Virus record (IMG/VR): IMGVR_UViG_3300037408_000506
DNA: 64,000 bases
From: a virus
Strand: one strand, 5' to 3'
Each line of letters begins with the position of its first letter. The stretch's first letter is position 1. Positions 22,757 to 61,509 of the stretch are shown in pieces. The notes under the pieces are model-generated. The model worked only from the letters and a program-made list of their open reading frames with translations. It did not search any database and was not told the DNA's origin. The position numbers and the translations under genes are program-made.

Positions 22757-23587
22757 ATGGCGTTCGGGTTCATCGGCAAGCTCATCGAGGCGATCATGAA
22801 CGGGCCGGAGGGCACGGGCAGCGCGAGCATGTCCATCCTGGGGATCGACCCGGCCGATTCAAAGGGCAGCACGGTGATCCTGCCGGAGCGGACGTTCCAA
22901 TTCTGGCCGGAGAGCATCCAGGACAGCATCGAGATCGGGTGGCAGTTCAAGGACATCCCGGGCGGGTCGCACGCGCTGGCGCAGTGGGCCAGCAACAACG
23001 GCCGCACGATCAGCTTCGAGGTGCGGCTGCACCGCTTCATGAAGCCGGTGGATGACCGCACGGTGTTCGAGAAGATCGTGGACCCCATCGGGCTGACGAC
23101 GCCGGGCCAGCAGTACCTGAAGGACATGCGCCCGCACAACGTGGACCTGGACGCGGAGATCCGCTACCTGCGGGCGTTCTGCTATCCGAGCTACGCGGTG
23201 GACAGCACCTCGGGCAGCACGGTGTCGTATCCGCCGCCGGTGGCCATGCTGTGCGTGCCGGGCGTGGGACTGAACGAGCAGGGGTCGGACACCATCATGG
23301 CCGTGATGACAGGCTGCGACGTGACCTACAACCTGCTGTTCCCCAACGGGAAGCCGCGCAACGCCACGGTGGCGCTCACGTTCAAGCAGATCGTGCAGAA
23401 GGCGGGGGTGGGCGTGATGTGGCGCGGGATCGGCAAGGACGCGGCCATCAACGGCTACAAGCACCGCATTCCAGACATCGGCTACAATGTAAATGCCTAC
23501 ACGGCGGGCAATGCCAAGAGCAGCAAGGAGCCCTGGACGGGGGCCGGAGGCGTGCTCAACAAGATCGACACGAAGGGGACGACCTGA
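22757..23587 (+). CDS. Contractile-tail tube/tube-initiator-like protein (CIS_tube-like)
   Basis: FQFWPESI...W...IPG...QW...GRTISF...PPP...DVTYxLxFPNGKPRNATVALTFKQ pattern. Confidence 0.65.
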   Translation: MAFGFIGKLIEAIMNGPEGTGSASMSILGIDPADSKGSTVILPERTFQFWPESIQDSIEIGWQFKDIPGGSHALAQWASNNGRTISFEVRLHRFMKPVDDRTVFEKIVDPIGLTTPGQQYLKDMRPHNVDLDAEIRYLRAFCYPSYAVDSTSGSTVSYPPPVAMLCVPGVGLNEQGSDTIMAVMTGCDVTYNLLFPNGKPRNATVALTFKQIVQKAGVGVMWRGIGKDAAINGYKHRIPDIGYNVNAYTAGNAKSSKEPWTGAGGVLNKIDTKGTT

Positions 23588-29680: not shown

Positions 29681-30297
29681 GTCTGATCCTGGCGAGTCAG
29701 TTGGGCCTGGTGGACATGCTGCGCACGGATACGGTGTCGGCGCACCCCTGGAACCGCCCGGACGAGTGGCAGTTGAAGCCGAGCGGGGGGTGGGTGAATC
29801 CGCCCACGGACTACGACTCGACGTGGGAGCTGAAGCCAGTGGCGGGCGAGGTGTTCGTGGTCACGGCCTGCCAGATCCAGATGTCGGCGGATGTGATCCT
29901 GGTGGCATCGAACGCGATGCAGGTCCACGTCACCATTCAGACCCCGATCCCGCCGATCCAGGTGACGCAGTTCATCCACGCGGACGAGTTCCTGAACCGG
30001 GCGTCGGAGGTCAACTACTACCCGGTGAGCGGGGTCACGGCGGGGTCGGAGATTACGCGCCCGTTCTACCGCACGGTCATCCCGTTCGCGGCCAAGATCT
30101 TCCTGTGGAGCACGGCGGGGATCGATCCGGGCACCGGGCAGCCTCGGGTGGACCGGCTGGGGAACGTGAAGCTGCGCAGCATGACGGCCAAGATCGCCAA
30201 CCACCGGCCCTACGCGGACCCGAACGCGGCGGCCTTGCAGACGGCGTGGAGTCGATACTTTGTGGACGTATATCGCGACCCAGACTACGCAGTCTGA
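29677..30297 (+). CDS. Hypothetical (probably structural) beta-rich protein
   Basis: GGAGGG SD; ATGA overlap. Confidence 0.5.
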   Translation: MSLILASQLGLVDMLRTDTVSAHPWNRPDEWQLKPSGGWVNPPTDYDSTWELKPVAGEVFVVTACQIQMSADVILVASNAMQVHVTIQTPIPPIQVTQFIHADEFLNRASEVNYYPVSGVTAGSEITRPFYRTVIPFAAKIFLWSTAGIDPGTGQPRVDRLGNVKLRSMTAKIANHRPYADPNAAALQTAWSRYFVDVYRDPDYAV

Positions 30298-30310
30298 GGT
30301 GGAGGCGGGC

Positions 30311-30859
30311 ATGGAGCAGCGGTGGCCCGATGTGCGGGTGGTGTTCGTGCGGACGACGGGCGCGCTCGCCGCGATCACGCGGTGGGTCACGCGGAGCCCG
30401 GTGAACCACATGTACATCGACATCCCGGTCTGGGGGCGGCGCATGGTGTGCGAGGCCACGACGGACGGCGGGGTGCGGCTGGTGCCGAGCAAGCAGGCGG
30501 GGACCACGGTCGTGATGGCGTACCGCTGCCACTTCGACACCGCGCCGGGGCTGTACGCCATTGGCGCCCTGCTGGGGCGGCCTTACGACTACTGGGGCGG
30601 GGTGCTGATCGCGGGGACGCGGCTGGCGTGGCGCTGGTTCCGGCTGAAGGCGCGGCGCCTCTCGTGGAGCACGCGGGCGATCAAGTGCTCGGAGCTGGCG
30701 GTGCTGTTCTTCCGGGCGTGCCAGGTCAAGGCGAGCGATCTGCACCCGGAGACGGTGGCCCCGTCGGACGTGCTGGCGTGGTGCAATGTGCGTCCGGGGT
30801 GGTTTGAATTGATTGAGGGGTCGGCCCATAACCTGGCAGAATGGGAGGGACGATCATGA
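30311..30859 (+). CDS. Permuted papain-like (NlpC/P60, YaeF/YiiX-type) amidase
   Basis: His before Cys: VNHMYI...VCEAT..G...GRPYDYWG...IKCSELA; GGAGG SD before ATG 30311. Confidence 0.75.
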   Translation: MEQRWPDVRVVFVRTTGALAAITRWVTRSPVNHMYIDIPVWGRRMVCEATTDGGVRLVPSKQAGTTVVMAYRCHFDTAPGLYAIGALLGRPYDYWGGVLIAGTRLAWRWFRLKARRLSWSTRAIKCSELAVLFFRACQVKASDLHPETVAPSDVLAWCNVRPGWFELIEGSAHNLAEWEGRS

Positions 30860-33375: not shown

Positions 33376-33723
33376 ATGTACGAGTACCAGGGGCGCGTCG
33401 TCAACGTCGTGGATGGGGACACCGTGGACCTGGAGCTGGACCTGGGCTTCGGGATCTGGCGGCGGGATCGGTTCCGGCTGCTGGGGATCAACGCCCCGGA
33501 GCGGCGCGGGGCGGACAAGCTGCGGGGGGCCCAGGCCACGGAGCGCCTGCGGGAACTGCTGGCGGCGGCGGCAGATGGCACCGTGCAGGTGCTGACCGTG
33601 CGGGACAAAAAAGAGAAGTACGGGCGCTACTTGGCGCGCATCATCGTCCAGGATGCCATTGGGGTCGTGCAGGACGTGGGGGCCACGCTCCTGGCCGAGG
33701 GACTGGTCGAACCGTATCGGTGA
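33376..33723 (+). CDS. Thermonuclease (SNase-like) family nuclease
   Basis: VVDGDTVD...RLLGINAPE...DKKEKYGRYLA motifs. Confidence 0.9.
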   Translation: MYEYQGRVVNVVDGDTVDLELDLGFGIWRRDRFRLLGINAPERRGADKLRGAQATERLRELLAAAADGTVQVLTVRDKKEKYGRYLARIIVQDAIGVVQDVGATLLAEGLVEPYR

Positions 33724-33778: not shown

Positions 33779-34525
33779 ATGCCAGGACGCGACGTGAATC
33801 CTCGATTTATGCAGCGATGTGTGGCCGATGTGACGGCGACGGGCAAGGAACTGGGGGCGGCCTTCGCGATCTGTACGGCGCAATCCCAGAAGTCTGGCTA
33901 CACTAAAAAGGGCTCGTCCAAGATGACCGGCAAGGGTGCCGCGCGGGAGCGGGTCTTTAAGAACGCGGACGACATGCAGGCGAAGAGTGCCGATTACGAG
34001 CGTGCGGTGCAGGCCGGGCGCCAGCAGGAGGAGACCAGCATGCGGAGCATCATTCGACAACTCGAAGAAGGGTCCAAAGACCGCCCGCGCCATCGGGAGA
34101 TCTTGTCCGAGATCAAGGCGATGGAGTTGGAAGTGCAACGCATGGCGGAGCGCATCTCGGAGGACGGCGACGAGAAGCTGGCCGGGTATGCCATGGAGGC
34201 CGCCAGCATGCTGGGCAAGGCATGGGTGCGCATGGCCTTCTTCGTGAAGAGCGCCGCTGGAAAGACGATCCGATCCGAGGAGACGGATGCGGACGATGGC
34301 GTGCTGGATGAGCGATTCGGTCGTCGTCAATCCTACAGCCGAGATCCCTACCTTACGAAGGCGAAGGTCGCGGGGACCGACGCCAAGGGGCTGCCCTACA
34401 AGAAGGGCGACGAGGTCATGATCTACAAGGATGGGACCACGTATGCCGGGGCCAACAAGGACCAGGCGTGGCGGGAGTTCCAGGCGGCCAAGGATGATGA
34501 AGCCTTCATGAGTGGCGGGTACTGA
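33779..34525 (+). CDS. Tagged multi-module protein 1 (internal MRSIIRQLEE at 34040)
   Basis: GGAGG SD at ATG 33779; N-terminal AFAICTA module, tagged helical module, C-terminal RDPY...KKGD module. Confidence 0.7.
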   Translation: MPGRDVNPRFMQRCVADVTATGKELGAAFAICTAQSQKSGYTKKGSSKMTGKGAARERVFKNADDMQAKSADYERAVQAGRQQEETSMRSIIRQLEEGSKDRPRHREILSEIKAMELEVQRMAERISEDGDEKLAGYAMEAASMLGKAWVRMAFFVKSAAGKTIRSEETDADDGVLDERFGRRQSYSRDPYLTKAKVAGTDAKGLPYKKGDEVMIYKDGTTYAGANKDQAWREFQAAKDDEAFMSGGY

Positions 34526-34534
34526 CAGCCTGAC

Positions 34535-34550
34535 GCGAACCCAGGTTCGC
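34535..34550. promoter_or_regulatory. 16-bp palindrome copy 6
   Basis: GCGAACCCAGGTTCGC between stop 34525 and probable start 34569. Confidence 0.8.
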
Positions 34551-34568
34551 CTATTGACGAGGCACACG

Positions 34569-36023
34569 ATGGCAGAAAAATTGGACCATGGCGTTGTCAA
34601 CCTGCCGCTCGACAAGCGCGGGGGTGGGAGCCTGGACGCGCAGATCGACCGCTTCAAGGCGGGGCAGCAGCGGGATGCCAAGGCGCAGGCCAAGGACAAG
34701 CACGCGCGATCCGTGGAGGCCAAAGAGTTCGTGGACCACATGGACGACGCGCAGCTCCGGCGACTGGCGGAGAAGGCCGGGATGACGGTGGTGCAGGCGC
34801 GCAAGAAGCTGTTGAGCATGGCGCGTTTTGAACCGGACAAGGTGCTGCGGCTCAAGGCTGCACAACCAACGGAGGAGACGATGCGGAGCTTGATCCGGCG
34901 ATTGGAAGAGGGGGCTGTTTGGCAAAAAGACAGCGCAGGGAAATATGAACGACTGCCACCTGGAGAAGCGCGGGCTGATGATATTCGATCACGCCTACGT
35001 GTGATGAGTGACAAGGCGGCATCTCAGAAGGCACGCGACAATTTTGATCGGTTGATGCGTGGCATGGCAAAGAAGCCCGCCGCACGGAAACATGCTTTCA
35101 TAGACAATATCGAACGCGTTTTCGATAGCTTCCTTGGTGACAAGGGATTCAGAGCAGACAAGGACGCGGTTGCACGCTCCAAGGCTGCTGATAATGGGTC
35201 AGATGCTATGGTGGACATGAAGACGGGCGAGCACATGTCACAGAAGCAAATAGACCAGCGAGATGCGCGAGCTAAGCAGGCTGCCAAGGAGCGAGAGGCA
35301 GATGCGGAGAAACGACAGGAAACAGAACGGAAGAAAGAGTTGATGGCCGGTGGTGGTCACGTCGGCGGGAAGAAGATCTTCTCTGGCGAGAAGGCGTCAT
35401 TGGATAAGCTCAAGGCTGGTGGACCGGTGAGAAAGGGCGTGGACGCGGGTGGCGAGGGGACGATGCCAGGGCCAGAGGGCGAGGTGGAGGGCAAGTGGGT
35501 GACGGTGCGTGGAAAGCGAATGTTCTTTCCGAACGATCCCGGGGAGGGCGTGCCCGAGGGTCCGTGGGGTGGTGCGCCATGGCGTCCCGGCTGGGATGGC
35601 AAGGGCGGGGATTGGCGGAAGGGACGCGGTGTTCCTAAACAAAAGGGGCAGATGAGTCTCTTTGGCAAAAACGAGGACATGCAGTCGCTATTCCAACGCC
35701 TGGAAGAGGAAGCCGGTCGGTCCAAAGAGATCGCCGACGAGATCTTGCGGCAGTTGGGCGGGCGGCGCTTCCTGGTGATGACGGGCGCGAGGAACCTGCT
35801 GGCGTTCGACACGCTGGACGCGGAGCGGAAGTGGCCCGGCTTGCAGGTGCAATTTCCGCATGGGAACGCCAAGGTCATGCGGATCGCGTTGGCGCCGGAC
35901 GATACCTACGTGATCCAGTTCATGACGCGGGCGGGGCGGGTGACCAAGGAGATGGACGACATCTACTCGGAGGTGCTCCAGCGCGTGGTGTCGGACTACA
36001 CGGGCTTGGCCCTGAGCCTGTAA
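34569..36023 (+). CDS. Tagged multi-module protein 2 (tags at 34881 and 35679)
   Basis: Contains GKWVTVRGKRMFF (head-protein-type motif); last module IADEILRQLGGRRFLVMTGA...DTY...TGLALSL resembles a widespread small phage protein family. Confidence 0.7.
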   Translation: MAEKLDHGVVNLPLDKRGGGSLDAQIDRFKAGQQRDAKAQAKDKHARSVEAKEFVDHMDDAQLRRLAEKAGMTVVQARKKLLSMARFEPDKVLRLKAAQPTEETMRSLIRRLEEGAVWQKDSAGKYERLPPGEARADDIRSRLRVMSDKAASQKARDNFDRLMRGMAKKPAARKHAFIDNIERVFDSFLGDKGFRADKDAVARSKAADNGSDAMVDMKTGEHMSQKQIDQRDARAKQAAKEREADAEKRQETERKKELMAGGGHVGGKKIFSGEKASLDKLKAGGPVRKGVDAGGEGTMPGPEGEVEGKWVTVRGKRMFFPNDPGEGVPEGPWGGAPWRPGWDGKGGDWRKGRGVPKQKGQMSLFGKNEDMQSLFQRLEEEAGRSKEIADEILRQLGGRRFLVMTGARNLLAFDTLDAERKWPGLQVQFPHGNAKVMRIALAPDDTYVIQFMTRAGRVTKEMDDIYSEVLQRVVSDYTGLALSL

Positions 36024-36032
36024 GGAGATCCC

Positions 36033-36674
36033 ATGGGACGATTGGCGATCCTGTCCGAGGCGATCCAGCAGGTGGCGCGGCCCCCGGCGATCCCGGAGGA
36101 TGCGCCCTATCGGCAGGCGCTGGCGCTCCTGCGGGACGGGCGCATGCCGAATGGGGGCACCTGGCGGGACGGCCCGCCGCCGCTGTTCGTGCGGCTGGGC
36201 GGGGCGGACACCTGCGTGGTGGTGCGCATGGGCCAGGAGGCGGTGGACGATACGCTCGGGCGGGGCACCCGCTACACGGGGCGCTTCGCGGTGCGCCCGG
36301 CGCGGGGCACGAGCGCGGGCGTGAGCATCGATCCGAGCGCGACGGAGGCGTTCATGTCGCAGGCGCTGGCGGCCCCGTGCGACGACCACCTGGCGCTGGA
36401 GCGGCTGGGGGCGGCGATGCGCGTGGTGGCCGAGGAGCGGGAGGAGGCGATACGCGGGGCGATCCGGTCGCTGTTCTGGGAGGACGGGTTGTGGCGCTTC
36501 GTGGGGTGGCCGCAGCGGGATCGCTGGGTGCTGAGCGACCTGTCGGTAGGGCGGATCGACATGGGCGAGGCGCTGGTGGATGAGAATCGCGGCGAGAGCT
36601 GGGTGGCGAAGCGCTGGGAGGCGTGGGTGCCGCTGACGGTAGACATTGAGGCGATGCTACGGAGGCGAGCATGA
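36033..36674 (+). CDS. Hypothetical protein, possible degenerate tag (MGRLAILSEA)
   Basis: AAGGAG SD; 213 aa. Confidence 0.55.
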   Translation: MGRLAILSEAIQQVARPPAIPEDAPYRQALALLRDGRMPNGGTWRDGPPPLFVRLGGADTCVVVRMGQEAVDDTLGRGTRYTGRFAVRPARGTSAGVSIDPSATEAFMSQALAAPCDDHLALERLGAAMRVVAEEREEAIRGAIRSLFWEDGLWRFVGWPQRDRWVLSDLSVGRIDMGEALVDENRGESWVAKRWEAWVPLTVDIEAMLRRRA

Positions 36675-37015
36675 AGAAGCAGGACAAGGCAGCGGGGACG
36701 GCGAGGAGTGGCCAGGACATGCTCCGGAAGGGCCTGGCGACCTGGCTGGCGCGGCACCCGGTGTTTGTGGAGGTGCGAGTGACGGGGGCGGAGCCGGAGG
36801 CGCTGGTGGGGCCCCTGGAGACGGTGGGCGAGCAGATGGACGCGCTGAAGGCGGCGGCGCCCGAGGCGCGGTTCGAGCTGGTGGGGTTCGGGTCGGCGCT
36901 GTCGGCGGAAGAGGCCCCGGAGGGGGACGAGGGCGAGGCCGAGGGTGAGGGCGAGGGCCAGGAGGAGGCCGTGGCGCAGTCGTCGATCTGGGCGGCGCGG
37001 GGCGCAGGGCAATAG
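36671..37015 (+). CDS. Hypothetical protein with acidic tail
   Basis: GGAGG SD; EGDEGEAEGEGEGQEE. Confidence 0.55.
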   Translation: MKKQDKAAGTARSGQDMLRKGLATWLARHPVFVEVRVTGAEPEALVGPLETVGEQMDALKAAAPEARFELVGFGSALSAEEAPEGDEGEAEGEGEGQEEAVAQSSIWAARGAGQ

Positions 37016-37049
37016 GCGAAGGATCAGGTCGCAAACCAAGGAGGCATAG

Positions 37050-37415
37050 ATGCCGCTATCCGTTTCAACGCAGGTCTCCCCAGTCGGGAGCAAGCTGATC
37101 GTGCAGACCAGTGTGGGCGCGACCCCGGACAACAACGTCACGGGCGCAGCGGGCACGCTGTACATGGTGGACGTGGACAACACGGCCAACACGGTGGACC
37201 CGGCGTACCTGAAGGTCTACAGCGACGCTGCGCCGGTCGTGGGGACCACGCCACCGGACCTCGTGTTTTTGGTCGGCGTGAACAAGCGGCGGGCGTTCGT
37301 GGTGCCGGAGGGCTGGGCCTTCACGGCGCTGTCGTTTGCGTGCGTCACGGCGGGCGGCACAGCGGGCGTGACAGCCCCGACGAGCCCGGTCGTGGTAAGG
37401 ATGGTGGCGTCGTGA
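37050..37415 (+). CDS. Putative head decoration-type beta protein
   Basis: AAGTLYMV...AYLKVY...APVVGTTPPD; AAGGAGG SD. Confidence 0.5.
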   Translation: MPLSVSTQVSPVGSKLIVQTSVGATPDNNVTGAAGTLYMVDVDNTANTVDPAYLKVYSDAAPVVGTTPPDLVFLVGVNKRRAFVVPEGWAFTALSFACVTAGGTAGVTAPTSPVVVRMVAS

Positions 37416-37431
37416 CGAAAAGGATAAGCCG

Positions 37432-38286
37432 ATGACCCAGAAGATTCAAATTGGACAAGCGCGAGCCGTCCTCATGCCGAAGGGAATGCAGTGGTTCGGT
37501 ATGCAGCAAGCCATTGAGTACATTCCTGCCGAGCGGGCAGACTTGGAGAAAGAGGCTGAGCAGGTGCGCAAGGAGGTGTATGGCGATCCGCCTTTTGGTG
37601 CGCCATCCAATTTGCGCATTCGCATCCCTCATTTTTCCGCTCCGGCAGACGGGCTGACGGGCGGGAAACGGCGTGTCGGTGAGGTGGCTTTGGCGCACGG
37701 CGGACTTCTGGTTTTATCCCCTGTCGAGGAGTTCTCGCGGAGCAAGCTGGAAGAGATTGCGTATGTGATGAAGCAGGGGAAGGATTCCAACGGACGGCCT
37801 GCACGCTTCGCGGTCCTGCTTGGCGTGCAACCTGAGACGTTGACTCTACCAACGGGTCGGGCTCGGGTAGAGAAGGCATTGGCGCTTTTTGGGACGACGT
37901 TGTCGGAGCAAAACAACAGCAACGGAATGACGACGATGCGTGGTCTGATTCGTCAGTTAGAGGAATCGAGTGTGAAGGACTCCGGTTCCAGTGAGTGGGT
38001 AGCGCAGAATCTGTCGATGTTGGCGGCGAATTTCGCACAGCAGGCCACGGAGACCTATCGAGGGCGAGGGACGGCATATCCGCGTAAGTGGTATGGCAAG
38101 ATGGAGAAGGTGCTAGCGGGCAACGGGTTCGGTCCTTTGAATGCCAAACAGTTGAAGCTGTTCGATGAGGCATACGAGCGGTTCATGGAGGCGTATGCGT
38201 CAGCGGGCGGACAGGATCTCAACGTCATAGAGCGGATTACCAAGGACATCACAAATCGCGCGTTAGCGCTCGTGAGGGCATCATGA
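37432..38286 (+). CDS. Degenerate ComM/YifB (Mg-chelatase-like AAA+) fragment fused to tagged module (tag at 37936)
   Basis: RIPHFSA...GG...GEVALAHGGLLVLSPVEEFSRSKLE...G...PARF matches ComM RxPHHxAS...GG...GEISLAHxGVLFLDExxEF...PARF, but with no Walker A/B. Confidence 0.6.
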   Translation: MTQKIQIGQARAVLMPKGMQWFGMQQAIEYIPAERADLEKEAEQVRKEVYGDPPFGAPSNLRIRIPHFSAPADGLTGGKRRVGEVALAHGGLLVLSPVEEFSRSKLEEIAYVMKQGKDSNGRPARFAVLLGVQPETLTLPTGRARVEKALALFGTTLSEQNNSNGMTTMRGLIRQLEESSVKDSGSSEWVAQNLSMLAANFAQQATETYRGRGTAYPRKWYGKMEKVLAGNGFGPLNAKQLKLFDEAYERFMEAYASAGGQDLNVIERITKDITNRALALVRAS

Positions 38287-38723
38287 CGACAATGCGGATC
38301 TTGATCGAGCGGTTGGAGGAAGGCGCAAGCGCGTGGACGCCTGCCGAAGAGACGGCTTGCTTTAAGCTCGCCAAGCAGCAGATCGCCACGCACGGCTACC
38401 GCTGGAATCCGCGTGTGGATGTCAGCAGCAGTACCGTGGTGGTGGACGCGCTGGTGAAGGGGCTGTTCAACGGGCGCGAGGGCACGCTGGTGATCGAGGT
38501 ATCGCGGGGACGCACGGGGGCCGGATCGCAGATGGAGGCGGGGGCCTCGTTCCAGACGGGCAAGAAGTGGACGGTCGAGGTGGTGGCGTCCAAGCCGATC
38601 CCGCAGACGAAGGAGAAGCAATGGCCACCGGATGCCTTTGCCTTCGGGCTGGAGGCCGGGGACATGCTTGTGCAGATATACGAGATGGCAATCCGCGAGG
38701 GGTTTTCCGAAGGGGCACCCTGA
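38283..38723 (+). CDS. Tagged protein (MTT-MRILIERLEE)
   Basis: N-terminal tag at 38292. Confidence 0.7.
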   Translation: MTTMRILIERLEEGASAWTPAEETACFKLAKQQIATHGYRWNPRVDVSSSTVVVDALVKGLFNGREGTLVIEVSRGRTGAGSQMEAGASFQTGKKWTVEVVASKPIPQTKEKQWPPDAFAFGLEAGDMLVQIYEMAIREGFSEGAP

Positions 38724-38739
38724 TCGGTGGAGATGGGAT

Positions 38740-38755
38740 GCGAACCTGGGTTCGC
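38740..38755. promoter_or_regulatory. 16-bp palindrome copy 7 (reverse orientation)
   Basis: GCGAACCTGGGTTCGC, intergenic. Confidence 0.8.
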
Positions 38756-38767
38756 TAGGAGGACAGG

Positions 38768-39028
38768 ATGACGAAGATGCGGACCTTGATCGAGCAGTTG
38801 GAAGAGGCACGGGAAGAGGGTCTGGGCCACAAACTTCCCGCCTTGGTCAAGGACTTCAGTGTGTCAACCAAGGCACTGGTGGCCTTTCTGGAGTTTGGGC
38901 ATGGCCACAGCGGCGAGTTGGGGCGGGCCTATGATGCCCTGATGAAGGCTGGCCATGAGGTGCAGGGCGCGGCGAAGCGTTTCGACAATGCCTGGGGCGC
39001 GGTGCGTGAGGCAGCAGGAGAACACTAA
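38768..39028 (+). CDS. Tagged small helical protein (MTK-MRTLIEQLEE)
   Basis: AGGAGG SD; tag at 38777. Confidence 0.7.
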   Translation: MTKMRTLIEQLEEAREEGLGHKLPALVKDFSVSTKALVAFLEFGHGHSGELGRAYDALMKAGHEVQGAAKRFDNAWGAVREAAGEH

Positions 39029-39029
39029 T

Positions 39030-39689
39030 ATGACAAAGATGCGGTCATTGATCGAGCGGTTGGATGAGTCGGCAAAGGGCGATGCCAGTCCGTCGTTCGT
39101 GTTGCTCCTGGCGGTGCAGCAGGCGTTGCTGGCGACCTTCACCAAGGAGAAGGGGTGGAAGTTCGACATCGAGGGCGTGCGGACGGGGGGGCGTCCGGGG
39201 CAGATCTCGGACGAGTACACCTTGCATGGCAATGGGCCGAATCGCGCGGCCATCATGGTCTTCTCATCGAACGACAAACAGGAGCACATGGCGATTGCGC
39301 AGGTGCTGGGGACGACGCGGAAGAAGATGGTCTGGGAGGACGTGAAGAAGGGCGATGCGAAGAAGATCGCGGCCTGGGTGCTTCAGACGGCGCAGGCGGA
39401 CAAGCAGTTTGCGGAGTCGGTGCAGGAGGGGGCGTCCCGGGATGACTGGAAGTGGACCGAGGCGCAGATAGCGAGGATCTCGCAAGAGATGAAGGCGCAT
39501 GCCGGGGGCATCGCTCCGGTGGAGATCGAGCAGATCGATCCGGCGAAGGGCCACGATAAGTTCTACGTCTTCTGGGACAAGAGCGACCGTGGCGAGCTGG
39601 CCTCGTACCGGGTCTGGGAGAAGTATGGCGCCAAGAAAAATGGGCGTGGGTATTCGTCCAACCTGAATGTGTTCTACGTGGTCCTGTAG
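39030..39689 (+). CDS. Tagged two-module protein (MTK-MRSLIERLDE)
   Basis: CAGGAG SD; tag at 39039; internal ESVQEG linker. Confidence 0.7.
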   Translation: MTKMRSLIERLDESAKGDASPSFVLLLAVQQALLATFTKEKGWKFDIEGVRTGGRPGQISDEYTLHGNGPNRAAIMVFSSNDKQEHMAIAQVLGTTRKKMVWEDVKKGDAKKIAAWVLQTAQADKQFAESVQEGASRDDWKWTEAQIARISQEMKAHAGGIAPVEIEQIDPAKGHDKFYVFWDKSDRGELASYRVWEKYGAKKNGRGYSSNLNVFYVVL

Positions 39690-39699
39690 GAGCGCTGAC

Positions 39700-40296
39700 A
39701 TGAATGTGACGACCGACTTCGTGGGGCGGCACCTGATCGTGGACGCCTCGACCTACAACCGGCGGAACCTGACGTCCACGGACACCATCTTCTCGCTGTT
39801 CGAGTCCCTGGCCCGCAACCTGGACATGACCCTGATCATCCCGCCCATCGTGTGTCGCTTTCCGTTCGCGAACAGCGAGCTGGAGAACTTCTGCCACAGC
39901 GTGGAGCGCGACCTGGAGACGCAGGTGCCGCAGCCGGACCTGGCCTCGATCCGCACCATGCGGGAGTTCCTGGCGCGGCGGCAGGTGGAGGACAGCGGGG
40001 TCACGGGGATCAGCGTGTGGGCGGAGTCGCACTGCGCGATCCACACCTGGGACGCGGACAACTACTTCGCGTTCGACGCCTTCTCGTGCAAGGACTACGC
40101 GCCCAAGGACGCGCTGCGGCTGCTGTTGAACCACTTCGACGTGGAGATGCTGAACTGCATCAACCTGATCCGGCACCAGCGGAGCGTGCCGACGCTGACG
40201 AACTTCCAGGTGAACACGAACTGGGACGTGCTGGTGCAGGGGGTCAAGATCGGGGAACTCGACACGGTCGACTTCGATAGGATGGTGGCACAATGA
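39700..40296 (+). CDS. speD: S-adenosylmethionine decarboxylase proenzyme
   Basis: GRHLIVD...GVTG...AESHCAIHTW...DAFSCK with the E/S autocleavage site at 40024-40029; AGGAG SD. Confidence 0.85.
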   Translation: MNVTTDFVGRHLIVDASTYNRRNLTSTDTIFSLFESLARNLDMTLIIPPIVCRFPFANSELENFCHSVERDLETQVPQPDLASIRTMREFLARRQVEDSGVTGISVWAESHCAIHTWDADNYFAFDAFSCKDYAPKDALRLLLNHFDVEMLNCINLIRHQRSVPTLTNFQVNTNWDVLVQGVKIGELDTVDFDRMVAQ

Positions 40297-40841
40297 CAAA
40301 CGATAGGTACTATGGTGGGCTCCCGCATTCCTCCAAGACGAGCCAGCGAACGACGGTGAAGGATCTGGCCGATGGGCTGGAGCAGGCGGCGCGGGTCATG
40401 GGCAAGGGCGCGAAGTCGGACGTGACAGCCAACCTAGCCTGGGCGATTCGCAAGGGGGATAAGCGGCATGTGCAGAAGCTGCTGGACAAGCATATTGATG
40501 ACATCATTGGCGGACAGGGGACGGTCAATGAAATCATGCGGTGGCTGAACGGGCAGATCCCAGAAGGCAGGGAGGTGACCATGCGATCTTTGATTCAGCG
40601 GCTGGAAGAGGCGACAGTTCAGCTCAGCAATAGCGCGTGGAAGGCGGCTCATGCGGAGTTGCAGGATCTGTTCACAGACAATGAGGCCGAACGGGTGATC
40701 GGCCTCTATAAGCGATATGCGAAGGACAAGGCTGGCTTTGCCAAGGCGGCTGTGAACGCCGAGATCGGCACTCGTGATCACAAGTTCGTTCATGAGCGCG
40801 ACTGGTTGGACATCTGGGCGTCGCTCGACAAGGTCGCGTGA
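40293..40841 (+). CDS. Tagged two-module protein (internal MRSLIQRLEE at 40581)
   Basis: Internal GGAGGTG SD before the tag. Confidence 0.7.
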   Translation: MTNDRYYGGLPHSSKTSQRTTVKDLADGLEQAARVMGKGAKSDVTANLAWAIRKGDKRHVQKLLDKHIDDIIGGQGTVNEIMRWLNGQIPEGREVTMRSLIQRLEEATVQLSNSAWKAAHAELQDLFTDNEAERVIGLYKRYAKDKAGFAKAAVNAEIGTRDHKFVHERDWLDIWASLDKVA

Positions 40842-40848
40842 GGCGACC

Positions 40849-41517
40849 ATGCGATCTTTGATCCGACAGTTGGAGGAGGCGCGGGCGGCGGGCTGGGTTG
40901 CGGTCCCGGCGGACGATCTGCGACGGCTGACCGACGGCCTGCTGTTCACGCAGCTCGGGAAGAGCAGCGGCGAGGTGGTGCTGCACGCGTACCGGCAGGG
41001 GGCCGCCGTGATCGTGCAGCATGCCGCGTCGCAGGCGAAGCCGATCTGGTCGGTGGTGATCGCGTATCGACCGACGTTGAGCGGCAGTCTGCGGGTGGCG
41101 GCCTTGCGGGTGAGCCCCAAGCGAGCAGAGGCCGAGGCGGCGGCATTGGCGGAGGTCGCCCGGCTGGGGCTGGACGTGGCGCCGGTCCAGATCGCGACGG
41201 TGCGGACCACGGTGGGGCGGGTGGACGAGTGGGCGGAGCTGACGGTGGAGGTGACGGGCACCTGGCCGGACCCGCGCACGCAGGACCGCGCTAAGTTGGG
41301 GCAGATCATTGTGGCGGCGCTGTGGGTGCATCCGGCGTGGCAGCGGGAGGTGGGGCGCCGACGGGGGCAGACCGTGGACGTGGGGTACGTGGGCGACACG
41401 CAGGGGGACGGCGGGCCGACGCGGACGGTGCCGGTGCCGCTGCCGGGAAGCATGCGCGACCTGGAGTTGATGGACGTCGACCAGACCACGGCGCGGTTCG
41501 TGGTCACAGCGCGATGA
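40849..41517 (+). CDS. Tagged protein (MRSLIRQLEE)
   Basis: ATG 40849 after GTGAGG; N-terminal tag. Confidence 0.7.
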   Translation: MRSLIRQLEEARAAGWVAVPADDLRRLTDGLLFTQLGKSSGEVVLHAYRQGAAVIVQHAASQAKPIWSVVIAYRPTLSGSLRVAALRVSPKRAEAEAAALAEVARLGLDVAPVQIATVRTTVGRVDEWAELTVEVTGTWPDPRTQDRAKLGQIIVAALWVHPAWQREVGRRRGQTVDVGYVGDTQGDGGPTRTVPVPLPGSMRDLELMDVDQTTARFVVTAR

Positions 41518-41527
41518 GGAGGCAATC

Positions 41528-42889
41528 GTGAGGAGTCTGATCCGACGCTTGGAAGAGGCGGCTCCGGCTCCTGGGTCCAAGGAGTGGCTGGCAGGGGTCA
41601 AGAAGTGGTGGGGGCAGTGGGTGAAGGATGCCGAGCGCGTTGCCAAGATCCGTGATCCGCAGGATCGTAAAGTTGTTCTTAATTGGTTTACGGATGGGGA
41701 AAACAGGATTCGCCTGCTGATCGACGTGTTGGTGCGTCGCTCTTGGTTGCAGACCGATCCGTCATTGGCGAAGATCACGGTCGGTTCCAAGGAGTACAAA
41801 GACGGAATCGCTCGGATGAAGGTGCCACGCTCGTATACTGTTGATGGCAACAAGGTCCGTCCAGAACCAGGCGAGTTAGTTCATCCTCATTTAGATGCGG
41901 CATTGCGTTCACTTGAGAATGTGATGTCCATGGAACAGTATGGTTGGGAGGATTCGAAGAAACCTGACATGGAACGTCGATGGGGGACGACGAAAGATTT
42001 GGATGCGTGGCAGGTTCGTGTGGAGCTTTTCCCAAATGACATCAAGGGTGTAGACATCGACGTGCAGGCGGCGTTTCGCAAGTATGCGGCGGATGTAAAG
42101 GATACCTCTACACAGGAGCGGATCATCGCTGACTCGATCCCGCTCGACTACGATCTTGGCGGCGTAAAGGTGATCACAGATCCGGGAGCGTTGCATAGCC
42201 TTGGGATGCTGACAGTGCCAGGGGTGGAACTCGGTGCGAGTCGTGTGAGCAATCGCACGATGAACATGATCAAGGATGGCTTAGAGATCGGCTATCGAGT
42301 GTTAAAGCAGCGAGGGTTTGGTAATGTCTGGTACGGGACGATATTCGTTCTCCCACCGTCCAAGGCGATCATGGGAACGACGAACAAGACTGGTAGGAAG
42401 TTCCAGGCGGCTGGTCACTACAACATGAGCGATAGCATTGTTGTGAATCCTGAAGCGAGCTGGAAGGCAGAGAATGTCACTAGGGTTATCGTGCATGAAT
42501 TAGGGCATCGCTACTGGTACAAGCATATGAAGGCGGGGGCGCGAGCACGGTTTGCGGCGTGGTTCGATCCGCGCACCAAGGCAGACCAGGAACGCGAAGG
42601 AGCGAAGTCCGAGTATGTGCCAGCACCGACGGCGTATGGATCAGAGAGTCCGGTCGAGGAGTTTGCAGAGACCTTCGCAGCCTACGTGTTGGGGAAATAC
42701 GAGGGCATAACGCTGACGGGGCCGCAGAAGGCACGGTTCGAGGCATTGGCCCTGGGACGTGCAGCGCAGAGCGAGGACGTGGAAGAGGCGCTGGGCAAGA
42801 CTAGCCATGACGTCGCCGACGCGGCATACTGGCTGCCTGATGGTGTTGTCACCCCGCCGCGAGGCGGTCGAGCAAGGAGTATCCCATGA
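41528..42889 (+). CDS. Tagged zincin-like metallopeptidase (MRSLIRRLEE)
   Basis: VIVHELGH (42494-42508) plus downstream Y...SPVEEFAETFAAY third-ligand motif; GAGGAGG SD, GTG start. Confidence 0.75.
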   Translation: MRSLIRRLEEAAPAPGSKEWLAGVKKWWGQWVKDAERVAKIRDPQDRKVVLNWFTDGENRIRLLIDVLVRRSWLQTDPSLAKITVGSKEYKDGIARMKVPRSYTVDGNKVRPEPGELVHPHLDAALRSLENVMSMEQYGWEDSKKPDMERRWGTTKDLDAWQVRVELFPNDIKGVDIDVQAAFRKYAADVKDTSTQERIIADSIPLDYDLGGVKVITDPGALHSLGMLTVPGVELGASRVSNRTMNMIKDGLEIGYRVLKQRGFGNVWYGTIFVLPPSKAIMGTTNKTGRKFQAAGHYNMSDSIVVNPEASWKAENVTRVIVHELGHRYWYKHMKAGARARFAAWFDPRTKADQEREGAKSEYVPAPTAYGSESPVEEFAETFAAYVLGKYEGITLTGPQKARFEALALGRAAQSEDVEEALGKTSHDVADAAYWLPDGVVTPPRGGRARSIP

Positions 42890-43632
42890 CCGAGCAGTAC
42901 AAGGCGTTGAGCGACGCGGCGGGCCAGAAGGGCTGTGAGGGGTTGGACGTGGGCCAGACGGCGATCTGGTACATGAAGCGGGAGGCGTTCCGGAAGTGGA
43001 ACATGGGGCCGCTCTTTGCGGACGCCCCGCTGCCGACGCCGACGACGACGGACCTGTCGAAGGACCATGTGCTGCTGGGGTGGATCAAGGAGAAGCAGCT
43101 CGGGCCGATCTTCGAGATGTTGCAGGGCGAGATGTGGTCGCCCCAGGGCGAGGCCAACGGCTTCATCCGCAGCAAGGGGACGGCACACACCTCGATGAGC
43201 GTGGGCGACATCATCGTGGTGGGCGGCAAGGGGTGGATGGTGGATGGGTCGGGGTTTGCGGAGCTGCCGAGGGACAAGCGCGAGGCGCAGGAGATGTTCC
43301 AGGCGGCCCAGAAGGAGAGCGCGGCACTGCGGGCCAAGTATCGGAACGAGGACGTGGGCAGCATGCGCGGGCTGCTGCGGTCCCTGGAGGAGGGCAACGT
43401 GGCGGCGTTCGGCTGGTACAAGCCCGCCGAGGTCTACCAGGCGCTGGTGGACGCCTACCTGAAGGTGCATAGCCTGAAGGCGGACTTCGACCGCATGGAG
43501 GAGATCCCGAAGTCGCTGGAGCCCGCCTACGACGCGGTGATGAAGGCGGCGGCGGCGATCCAGGCTGCGCAGAAGGCGGCGGGCGGACTCTCGGATCAGA
43601 TGAAGGCGGCCTATCGGAAAGTGCAGGGGTGA
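42886..43632 (+). CDS. YodL-like domain fused to tagged helical module (tag at 43363)
   Basis: LGPIFEMLQ...HTSMSVGDIIVV...WMVDGSGFAEL resembles the YodL SLSVSDVV...YVDxxGF pattern. Confidence 0.6.
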   Translation: MTEQYKALSDAAGQKGCEGLDVGQTAIWYMKREAFRKWNMGPLFADAPLPTPTTTDLSKDHVLLGWIKEKQLGPIFEMLQGEMWSPQGEANGFIRSKGTAHTSMSVGDIIVVGGKGWMVDGSGFAELPRDKREAQEMFQAAQKESAALRAKYRNEDVGSMRGLLRSLEEGNVAAFGWYKPAEVYQALVDAYLKVHSLKADFDRMEEIPKSLEPAYDAVMKAAAAIQAAQKAAGGLSDQMKAAYRKVQG

Positions 43633-43636
43633 GGTC

Positions 43637-43960
43637 ATGCGCGCACTACTAGAAGCCCTCACGGGGCGCTACACGTTCGTGTTCAAGAAAGTCCACCCGG
43701 AGCGGAGTCATGGAAACAAGAAGCTGATCGCGCATCCCACCAAGCGAGTGAGCGTTGAGATCGAGTATTTCGAGAAGCCGGATCGCTGGAGTGCGACGAT
43801 TTTCGATGATGATGCCGAGGAGGAGTTCAGCCCGGACTACATCGTGGGCGGCCAGACGTTCGCCAAGGGGCTCACGCAGTCCGAGGCGGAAGAGGCGGCG
43901 ATTGAGATCACGTTGAAGTACCTGGGGGACAAACGACGTAAGGGCTGGCGGGAGCCGTAG
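43637..43960 (+). CDS. Hypothetical protein with shortened tag (MRALLEA)
   Basis: GAGG SD; last gene of the tagged run. Confidence 0.6.
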   Translation: MRALLEALTGRYTFVFKKVHPERSHGNKKLIAHPTKRVSVEIEYFEKPDRWSATIFDDDAEEEFSPDYIVGGQTFAKGLTQSEAEEAAIEITLKYLGDKRRKGWREP

Positions 43961-61302: not shown

Positions 61303-61509
61303 ATGCGACCCATGGGACTCCTGGAAGCCCTTGGCTTGGCGGAGGAGGTCGGATCGCGGGCGCTAACGTTTGACGAGCTGTTGTTCATGGCGGACGCGCG
61401 CAAGCGCAAGGGCTGCAAGATGATCAAGCGCCAGTTGACGGCAGAGGACATCCAGCGCGTGCTGGAGTTGGGCCGCAAGTGCGCGGCGCATAAGGAGATG
61501 ACCAGATGA
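61303..61509 (+). CDS. Small hypothetical protein
   Basis: In the gene run; ATGA overlap with groES. Confidence 0.5.
   Translation: MRPMGLLEALGLAEEVGSRALTFDELLFMADARKRKGCKMIKRQLTAEDIQRVLELGRKCAAHKEMTR

Follow-up and report, generated by a model that had tools for sequence, protein, structure and literature searches.

A decapeptide shared by unrelated proteins of an uncultured phage lineage: a probable capsid-targeting and cleavage tag of the T4 type

What connects a row of phage proteins that have ten residues in common and are otherwise unrelated? This question is raised by a 10-kb locus at positions 33779 to 43960 of a 64,000-nucleotide stretch of viral DNA (IMG/VR virus record IMGVR_UViG_3300037408_000506). 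The whole stretch is called the window in the following, and the shared decapeptide is called the tag. A first-pass annotation, made from the letters alone, had proposed that the tag is an address label analogous to, but different from, the capsid-targeting sequence (CTS) of phage T4. The address label has strong circumstantial support from the T4-type head genes of relatives and from the L-x-E site followed by a small residue. A merely analogous invention, however, appears less likely than a diverged member of the T4 capsid-targeting system, because the relatives have a T4-type head and the tag carries this site at its positions 8 and 10. We regard it as probable that the decapeptide is a lineage-specific T4-type tag for capsid targeting and cleavage, placed on a hypervariable cargo locus.

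The decapeptide and its conservation

The pattern M-[RQ]-x-[LI]-[ILF]-x-x-L-[ED]-E was searched in six frames and found in 11 copies, all on the plus strand, from 34040 to 43363. All 11 copies of the first-pass annotation were recovered at the positions it had given. Ten copies have an ATG. The copy at 41528 is present as well, but its start codon is GTG. A position matrix derived from the 11 copies was run in six frames over both strands of the 64-kb window and revealed no further tag with a score of 14 or more, in agreement with the earlier statement that no copy lies elsewhere in the window. As a control, shuffled sequences were searched. Neither 300 nucleotide shuffles nor 2000 shuffles of 11,416 residues of window proteins gave a single match.

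The modules behind the tags were clustered with the tags masked and fell into separate BLAST families. Thus, the sequences after the tags are unrelated, as had been noticed before, and paralogy of the tagged proteins was rejected as an explanation. To analyze conservation of the tag itself, 41 distinct DNA sequences of tags were taken from the window and from its relatives. Mean column entropy was 0.84, 0.48 and 1.32 bits for codon positions 1, 2 and 3, respectively. Leu8 is invariant, yet it is encoded by five different codons. Conservation stops sharply after codon 10, and none was found upstream of the ATG. Because conservation is codon-periodic, Leu8 uses synonymous codons and the edges are sharp, the element is a sharply bounded 10-mer conserved at the protein level. 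The first-pass annotation had read the synonymous variation in the same way. A DNA-level repeat was rejected as the source of the tags, since conservation follows the codons. Compared pairwise as DNA, the window tags are on average 66% identical and share exact runs of about 7 nt.

The layout of the tag is simple. Met1 is followed by a basic residue at position 2, a position 3 rich in Ser and Thr and a hydrophobic position 4. L8 and E10 are invariant in the window, so that Leu occupies P3 in 11 of 11 tags. Position 9 is E, D, T, S, Q or H across the relatives, and position 11 is G, A, S or E in the window. Among genes outside the locus, 3 of 61 contain [LI]xE[AGS] within the first 20 residues.

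Head genes of the relatives and the T4 leader

The distribution of the tag was followed on whole IMG/VR contigs of 106-169 kb, using a degenerate DNA pattern. In closer relatives, with contigs of 133-169 kb, this pattern matches 10 times per genome, and almost all matches lie in one locus of ~10 kb. Searches of the reverse strand and with a reversed control pattern gave 0 matches in the relatives, and the degenerate pattern gave 0 matches in a 5.9-Mb Myxococcota metagenome-assembled genome (MAG). A stricter pattern matched only three contigs among the IMG/VR viral contigs, all of this lineage. One tagged gene of the window encodes a metallopeptidase, and the contigs of its tagged homologues hold arrays of 10-13 tags in the syntenic locus. 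Tags are confined to one or two loci per genome. The sheath-like protein of the window shares 81% identity with its counterparts in the relatives G001 and G005; for G003 and G004 the value is 43%.

Each of these four relatives encodes a protein that passes the Pfam cut-off for Peptidase_S77 (T4 gp21), and each also encodes a major capsid protein of the Gp23 type (E 1e-56 to 1e-64). No HK97-type S78 protease was found in the four. A motif search of the relatives, which the first-pass annotation had suggested as a check, returned a tag array in one locus together with a gp21/S77 protease and a gp23-like capsid protein. Over 117 residues, the G004 protease shares 35% identity with T4 gp21, and its ELxHP and GVSSRG motifs with the catalytic His and Ser are conserved. 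In all relatives the protease continues into a long coiled-coil C-terminus that resembles a scaffold; the G004 fusion has 534 aa. Their capsid protein matches 2590 T4-type records, with at most about 31% identity to any full-length match. Judged from these sequences, the lineage branches deeply within the T4 superfamily and has no cultured member. The window's own genome presumably has the same head genes, by inference from its close relatives. In G005, all on the same strand, the features are arranged as follows:

60-65 kb: protease and capsid genes
~80 kb: second tag cluster
~123 kb: sheath-like gene
138-147.5 kb: tag locus

The tag was compared with the leaders of T4. In T4 (NC_000866), ipII and ipIII begin with MKTYQEFIAE before an Ala, and ipI begins with MKTFKEFTSTTTPVSTITE, which ends in ITE and is also followed by Ala. 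The CTS of IPI, IPII, IPIII and Alt goes back to Mullaney and Black 1996, as summarised in PMC9026906 and PMC5694885. The first 10 residues of T4 IPIII suffice for packaging; residues 4 and 7 of the leader matter for targeting, residues 8 and 10 for processing, and Asp10 blocks processing (PMC9026906), though not targeting. T4 gp21 and its relatives cleave after Glu (PMC5694885). Both leader and tag are ten residues long and stand on unrelated proteins. Both start with Met, a basic residue, S or T and a hydrophobic residue, and end in [L/I]-x-E with a small residue behind it. A gp21/S77 protease and a gp23-type capsid accompany both, in the present case in the relatives. Identical residues are M1 and E10; K/R2, T/S3, Y/L4 and I/L8 are conservative pairs, and the comparison is too short for statistics. 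In contrast to MKTYQEFIAE, the tag reads MRSLIRxLEE, with its second hydrophobic residue at position 5 instead of 7. T4 has 3-4 copies, whereas 11 stand in one locus here, and half of these are internal in-frame joints with their own Shine-Dalgarno (SD) sequence and ATG. Furthermore, the protease is fused to a scaffold-like protein in this lineage.

The ip loci of T-even phages are similarly hypervariable. At least 10 unrelated Ip proteins have only the leader in common (Repoila et al. 1994, as cited in PMC12373910 and PMC3012670). Both there and here, a hotspot of unrelated small genes is united only by a leader and turns over rapidly between related phages. The present locus differs in belonging to a far lineage, whose capsid protein shares no more than 31% identity with that of any isolate, in its 453-aa metallopeptidase and in its multi-module fusions. 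A second comparison is offered by the giant phages phiKZ, 201phi2-1 and SPN3US. There, many proteins inside the head are cleaved after Glu by a protease related to gp21, in some cases at multiple sites, and paralogues can share identical N-terminal propeptides; the motif is S/A/G-x-E or A-x-E (PMC5694885, PMC7411985). P3 is small in phiKZ and SPN3US, whereas it is Leu in all 11 tags, as in T4, and no portable 10-mer common to many unrelated proteins is described for these phages.

Based on these comparisons, we infer roles in docking, cleavage, packaging, injection and cargo as follows. The tag would form a short amphipathic helix by which proteins made late dock to the scaffolding core while the prohead assembles. 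The prohead protease of the gp21 type (S77) would then cut after Glu10, at L8-x-E10 before G, A or S. The freed cargo would stay in the head with the DNA and be delivered when the phage infects its host. The tail-gene operon ends with the 10-kb locus, which would serve as a cargo store of fast turnover, containing a zincin-like peptidase, a phrog_9437 module and uncharacterised proteins. In addition, the tag would act as an in-frame joint that links untagged N-modules, foremost a basic carrier called F1, to a downstream module. Such a long fusion could take its two parts into the head together and then be split at the joint, while internal starts could additionally give short N-tagged forms.

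Several observations weigh against this reading. The identity of the tag to the T4 leader amounts to M1, E10 and the conservative matches, and homology of the peptides is not demonstrable. The T4 leader that has been characterised acts at a free N-terminus, but six of the 11 tags here are internal. The tagged proteins are known here from genes and not from virions, and the protease and capsid genes were seen in relatives, outside the window (~75 kb upstream of the locus in G005). The capsid proteins of the relatives contain a conserved L-[HS]-E-D at residues 61-67, near the T4 gp23 cut after residue 65. However, MAFFT aligns the LTE of T4, which precedes Ala, with FTK and not with the upstream L-x-E, leaving the mapping of the maturation site ambiguous. 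The T4-type late promoter TATAAATA is absent from the window, a result that is uninformative in a distant relative with 64% G+C. When the G004 protease-scaffold protein (534 aa) was co-folded with a tagged protein of 91 aa from that phage, the score was 0.00, which speaks neither for nor against binding.

The tag locus lies directly downstream of contractile-tail genes, and in extracellular contractile injection systems (eCIS) payload genes lie in the same place. The tag helix might therefore dock to another partner, such as the tail or baseplate as in eCIS, a phage hub or chaperone, or a host protein, with L-x-E being incidental. The position would also fit payloads of eCIS and Photorhabdus virulence cassettes (PVC), but the signal does not. 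Payload signals of eCIS comprise ~50 residues, are disordered and are poorly conserved; the tag, in contrast, is a sharply bounded and strongly conserved 10-mer helix. Invariant L8 and E10 around a variable position 9 are expected of a protease site but not of a helix that serves docking only, and the lineage has a Glu-specific protease of the T4 type. We consider docking to such a partner unlikely.

Some further observations were made on the head genes and on the second tag cluster of G005. The gp21-type protease domain of G005 (G005:C1:60265-63489) is split by an intein-like insert of ~400 aa, which begins with Cys and has a serine directly after it. The protease of G003 shows the same split Pfam match. 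The scaffold-like part in G004 and G003 contains VRGVLRQLEK-LPPAPNP, which resembles the tag and linker of the metallopeptidase (MRxLIRRLEE-AAPAPGS). VRGVLRQLEK reaches a matrix score of 16 only and could be chance or a mimic of a scaffold helix. The second cluster was detected by one extra pattern match at ~80 kb and is a small group of MTTM... genes with looser L-x-E leaders. It spans G005:C1:79300-82300, ~15 kb downstream of the capsid gene. Behind MTTM... or MTKM... starts, it holds MRTLIGRLEE, MRRLSGLLTE before an Ala, MNDLFESME and MRSLIGELSE. One gene of this cluster encodes a product whose N-half is very acidic and whose C-half is rich in Lys.

Internal tags, the F1 carrier and exchange of modules

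The locus follows the tail genes in the same direction. Its genes are densely packed, and several starts overlap the preceding stop. Its content is as follows, all on the plus strand:

33779-34525: F1-tag-F9 gene; basic 87-aa carrier, internal tag MRSIIRQLEE (34040-34069), then a 151-aa module
34512-36023: three-module polyprotein F10-tag-F11-tag-F12; tags MRSLIRRLEE (34881-34910) and MQSLFQRLEE (35679-35708)
36033-36674, 36671-37015 and 37050-37415: three conserved untagged or weakly tagged genes of families F4, F5 and F2, kept in relatives; the first starts with MGRLAILSE before an Ala
37432-38286: F17-tag-F18 gene; internal tag MRGLIRQLEE (37936-37965), preceded by MTT
38283-38723: N-terminally tagged gene, MTT-MRILIERLEE; tag at 38292-38321
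38768-39028: N-terminally tagged gene, MTK-MRTLIEQLEE; tag at 38777-38806
39030-39689: N-terminally tagged gene, MTK-MRSLIERLDE; tag at 39039-39068
39667-40296: untagged S-adenosylmethionine decarboxylase-like (AdoMetDC-like) gene; G+C at third codon positions (GC3) close to 1.0; PF02675 on the orthologues in the related loci L001 and L003
40293-40841: F33-tag-F34 gene; internal tag MRSLIQRLEE (40581-40610), SD duplex upstream of the tag -12.4 kcal/mol
40849-41517: N-terminally tagged gene, MRSLIRQLEE; tag at 40849-40878
41528-42889: tagged HELGH zincin-like metallopeptidase of 453 aa; GTG start, MRSLIRRLEE; homologues keep the tag
42886-43632: F36-tag-F20 gene; internal tag MRGLLRSLEE (43363-43392), GC3 0.92-0.98 in one frame throughout
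43637-43960: gene with the shortened tag MRALLE before an Ala; orthologues in L004 and L008 with full MRGLLRSLEE

The tags had been taken as N-terminal starts. This holds for five copies, which stand at a gene start or at most 3 codons from it, three of them behind MTT or MTK. In contrast, six of 11 tags (34040, 34881, 35679, 37936, 40581 and 43363) are internal to long open reading frames (ORFs), namely 33779-34525, 34512-36023 with two tags, 37432-38286, 40293-40841 and 42886-43632. The parts of these ORFs upstream of the tag show a GC3 coding signal in the same frame and no stop codon. An assembly artefact was rejected as the cause of internal tags, since identical fusions recur in independent assemblies. 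Two degenerate starts had also been proposed. The one at 43637 is indeed a shortened tag, as its orthologues indicate, whereas that at 36033 has only a weak L-S-E motif followed by A.

Every internal tag keeps an ATG and a Shine-Dalgarno sequence. SD pairing averages -7.3 kcal/mol for internal tags, -6.3 kcal/mol for true starts and -4.0 kcal/mol for other internal ATGs (P about 0.002). The SD region of the tags is not conserved in sequence. Because the internal tags keep these signals, the downstream modules are probably also made alone, with a free N-terminal tag.

Module maps were compared for six loci, the window and relatives, and revealed a hypervariable locus in which modules turn over between related phages. 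Family F22 is a stand-alone N-tagged gene in L001 and the C-terminal part of an F17-tag-F22 gene in L004. F18 stands behind F17 in the window and behind F53 in L008 (F53-tag-F18). F20 and its tag follow different N-modules (F36 and F42); the window has F36, and L001 has another N-module than the window. The three-module polyprotein recurs in L008 with its middle module swapped, while both flanking modules and both tags are retained. The last module of this polyprotein, F12, corresponds to phrog_9437, which occurs as a stand-alone protein of ~98 aa in many unrelated phages. Thus, generic accessory proteins appear to be recruited by placement behind a tag.

Strong SD pairing at an invariant ATG and precise swapping of modules at the tags between relatives would also be expected of a cassette for expression and gene shuffling. 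Here SD, ATG and first codons would provide nested initiation and a module joint, and the tag would have no sorting role. The codon statistics argue against such a cassette. Conservation is weakest at third codon positions and strongest at second ones, Leu8 is encoded by five codons, and a conserved SD sequence is missing. Tags with 66% DNA identity and exact runs of ~7 nt are a poor substrate for homologous recombination. Moreover, the amphipathic i, i+3, i+4, i+7 pattern and the ending L-x-E plus small residue are protein features. A cassette without sorting role is therefore very unlikely in our estimate.

The first gene of the locus begins with the F1 module (33779-34039). It is basic, comprises 87 aa and reads RFMQRCVADV...AFAICTAQSQK. 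In 12 of 12 aligned homologues F1 leads in frame into the tag, in which Met and Glu10 are invariant, and at least 8 unrelated C-termini follow behind F1 and tag in this set. A profile search (E <= 0.001) extended the widespread F1 family to 275 cluster representatives; the domain has ~85 aa, is basic and contains two conserved Cys. The tag behind F1 is found only in the wider lineage of the window; a loose tag-like pattern was detected in 27 of 140 representatives. F1 is mostly N-terminal with very diverse C-termini, and is sometimes C-terminal in proteins of 600-900 aa. No Pfam family was found in the F1 protein of the window or in 10 long F1-containing relatives, and no PHROG matched. A PDB sequence search with the F1 profile was empty, the model of the F1-tag-F9 protein gave nothing clear against Atlas and BFVD, and tblastn with F1 found none in isolated phages. 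In the arrangement of a conserved N-terminal carrier and hypervariable C-terminal modules, the F1 proteins resemble MuF polymorphic toxins. However, no MuF domain (PF04233) was found in them, and their junction is a defined tag that resembles a protease site.

In other lineages, many F1 members of ~100 aa close with an amphipathic helix that resembles the tag and stands immediately behind the domain. In the AlphaFold2 (AF2) model of the F1-tag-F9 protein, the tag continues the F1 helix and ends it (residues 66-98), followed by a break. The tag could accordingly be the C-terminal helix of F1 that spread to other genes as a short oligomerisation helix, bundling the tagged proteins without proteolysis. 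Ten residues are short for a stable coiled coil, though, and the strict Glu10 with a small residue after it would remain unexplained. In the model of the metallopeptidase, the tag helix is of low confidence and detached. We regard such a bundling helix as quite improbable.

Under the T4-type reading preferred here, the internal tags and F1 allow a tentative extension, which we offer as a possibility and not as the expected case. The tag might be both an address and a cut-here joint, so that strings of cargo, in which a carrier or untagged module precedes a tag and a module and sometimes one more tag and module, enter the prohead as one chain and are separated inside the capsid by the protease. 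F1 would be a dedicated carrier and its C-terminal helix the ancestral tag, and effectors would be recruited by landing in frame behind a tag.

Independent of this, one metagenomic F1-containing protein of 578 aa was observed in L028 (P0088, 10001-11737). Its F1 is internal, and it weakly matches phrog_6422, a family of Lar-like restriction-alleviation proteins (E 2.7e-4). This match hints at anti-restriction cargo among F1-linked proteins.

In T-even phages it is established that unrelated internal proteins, some of them directed against restriction, have a capsid-targeting leader in common and are encoded in hypervariable loci (PMC12373910, PMC3012670, PMC9026906), and the principle has been known there since 1994-96. 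The open literature was searched for three further features. It yielded no such leader in a lineage this distant from T4, none that joins modules in frame inside a protein and brings start signals of its own, and no conserved carrier domain always followed by such a leader. In-frame polyproteins chained by tags, internal tags with SD and invariant ATG, and the order carrier, tag, variable C-terminus thus look new. The advance is one of breadth and architecture and not a new mechanism.

Of all phage molecules, the proteins injected together with the DNA are the first to encounter host defences. All three internal proteins characterised in T4 block restriction enzymes. Ip1-3 each act against a different GmrSD enzyme (Repoila et al. 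1994, as cited in PMC12373910 and PMC3012670). With a recognisable leader, the packaged and injected set could be listed from sequence in a lineage that has no cultured member. If the address-and-joint extension is true, the proteins that this lineage injects, and perhaps those of the wider F1-bearing phages, would become readable in the same way. Module chaining and the carrier, tag and variable-end design suggest how such arsenals grow, and the tag architectures provide natural designs by which capsids of the T4 type could be loaded with foreign proteins.

Cargo proteins and neighbouring genes

The cargo proteins were compared with Pfam and PHROGs, and almost nothing was found beyond the Mg_chelatase fragment and phrog_9437. 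The former is a ComM/Mg-chelatase-like fragment in the F17 N-module (PF01078, 25 bits). In the AF2 model of the metallopeptidase the tag forms a low-confidence helix (residues 2-10), and the linker AAPAPGS separates it from the fold. A comparison of this model with the PDB gave weak matches to the zinc metallopeptidase (zincin) fold. tblastn with the metallopeptidase returned one match, an uncultured record. An Atlas feature search with the protein of 39030-39689 was empty, and megablast of the locus revealed no match among isolated phages. The nearest cellular match of the AdoMetDC-like protein (39667-40296) is 72% identical and lies on a 10-kb contig of a Myxococcota MAG, a contig without tags. 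This match is a hint that the host may belong to the Myxococcota.

The window has a G+C content of ~64%, and nearly all of its genes are on the plus strand. Its first part (1-33 kb) contains tail-type genes, including fibre-like proteins of 1472 and 1687 aa and Ig-like structural proteins. A weak match to a contractile tube (CIS_tube) was found at 22757-23587. The tag locus ends at 43960 and is followed by a small membrane gene on the minus strand. The start of an early-region gene at 61303-61509, MRPMGLLEALG, resembles the shortened tag MRALLEALTG of 43637, a similarity that may be chance. Among small genes between the tail genes and the tag locus, 30260-30859 encodes a 199-aa protein similar to phrog_1128 (enoyl-CoA hydratase / ClpP-crotonase-like, E 5.6e-11). 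Directly upstream of the locus lies an untagged staphylococcal-nuclease-like (SNase) gene (33376-33723), which is kept in L001 and L008.

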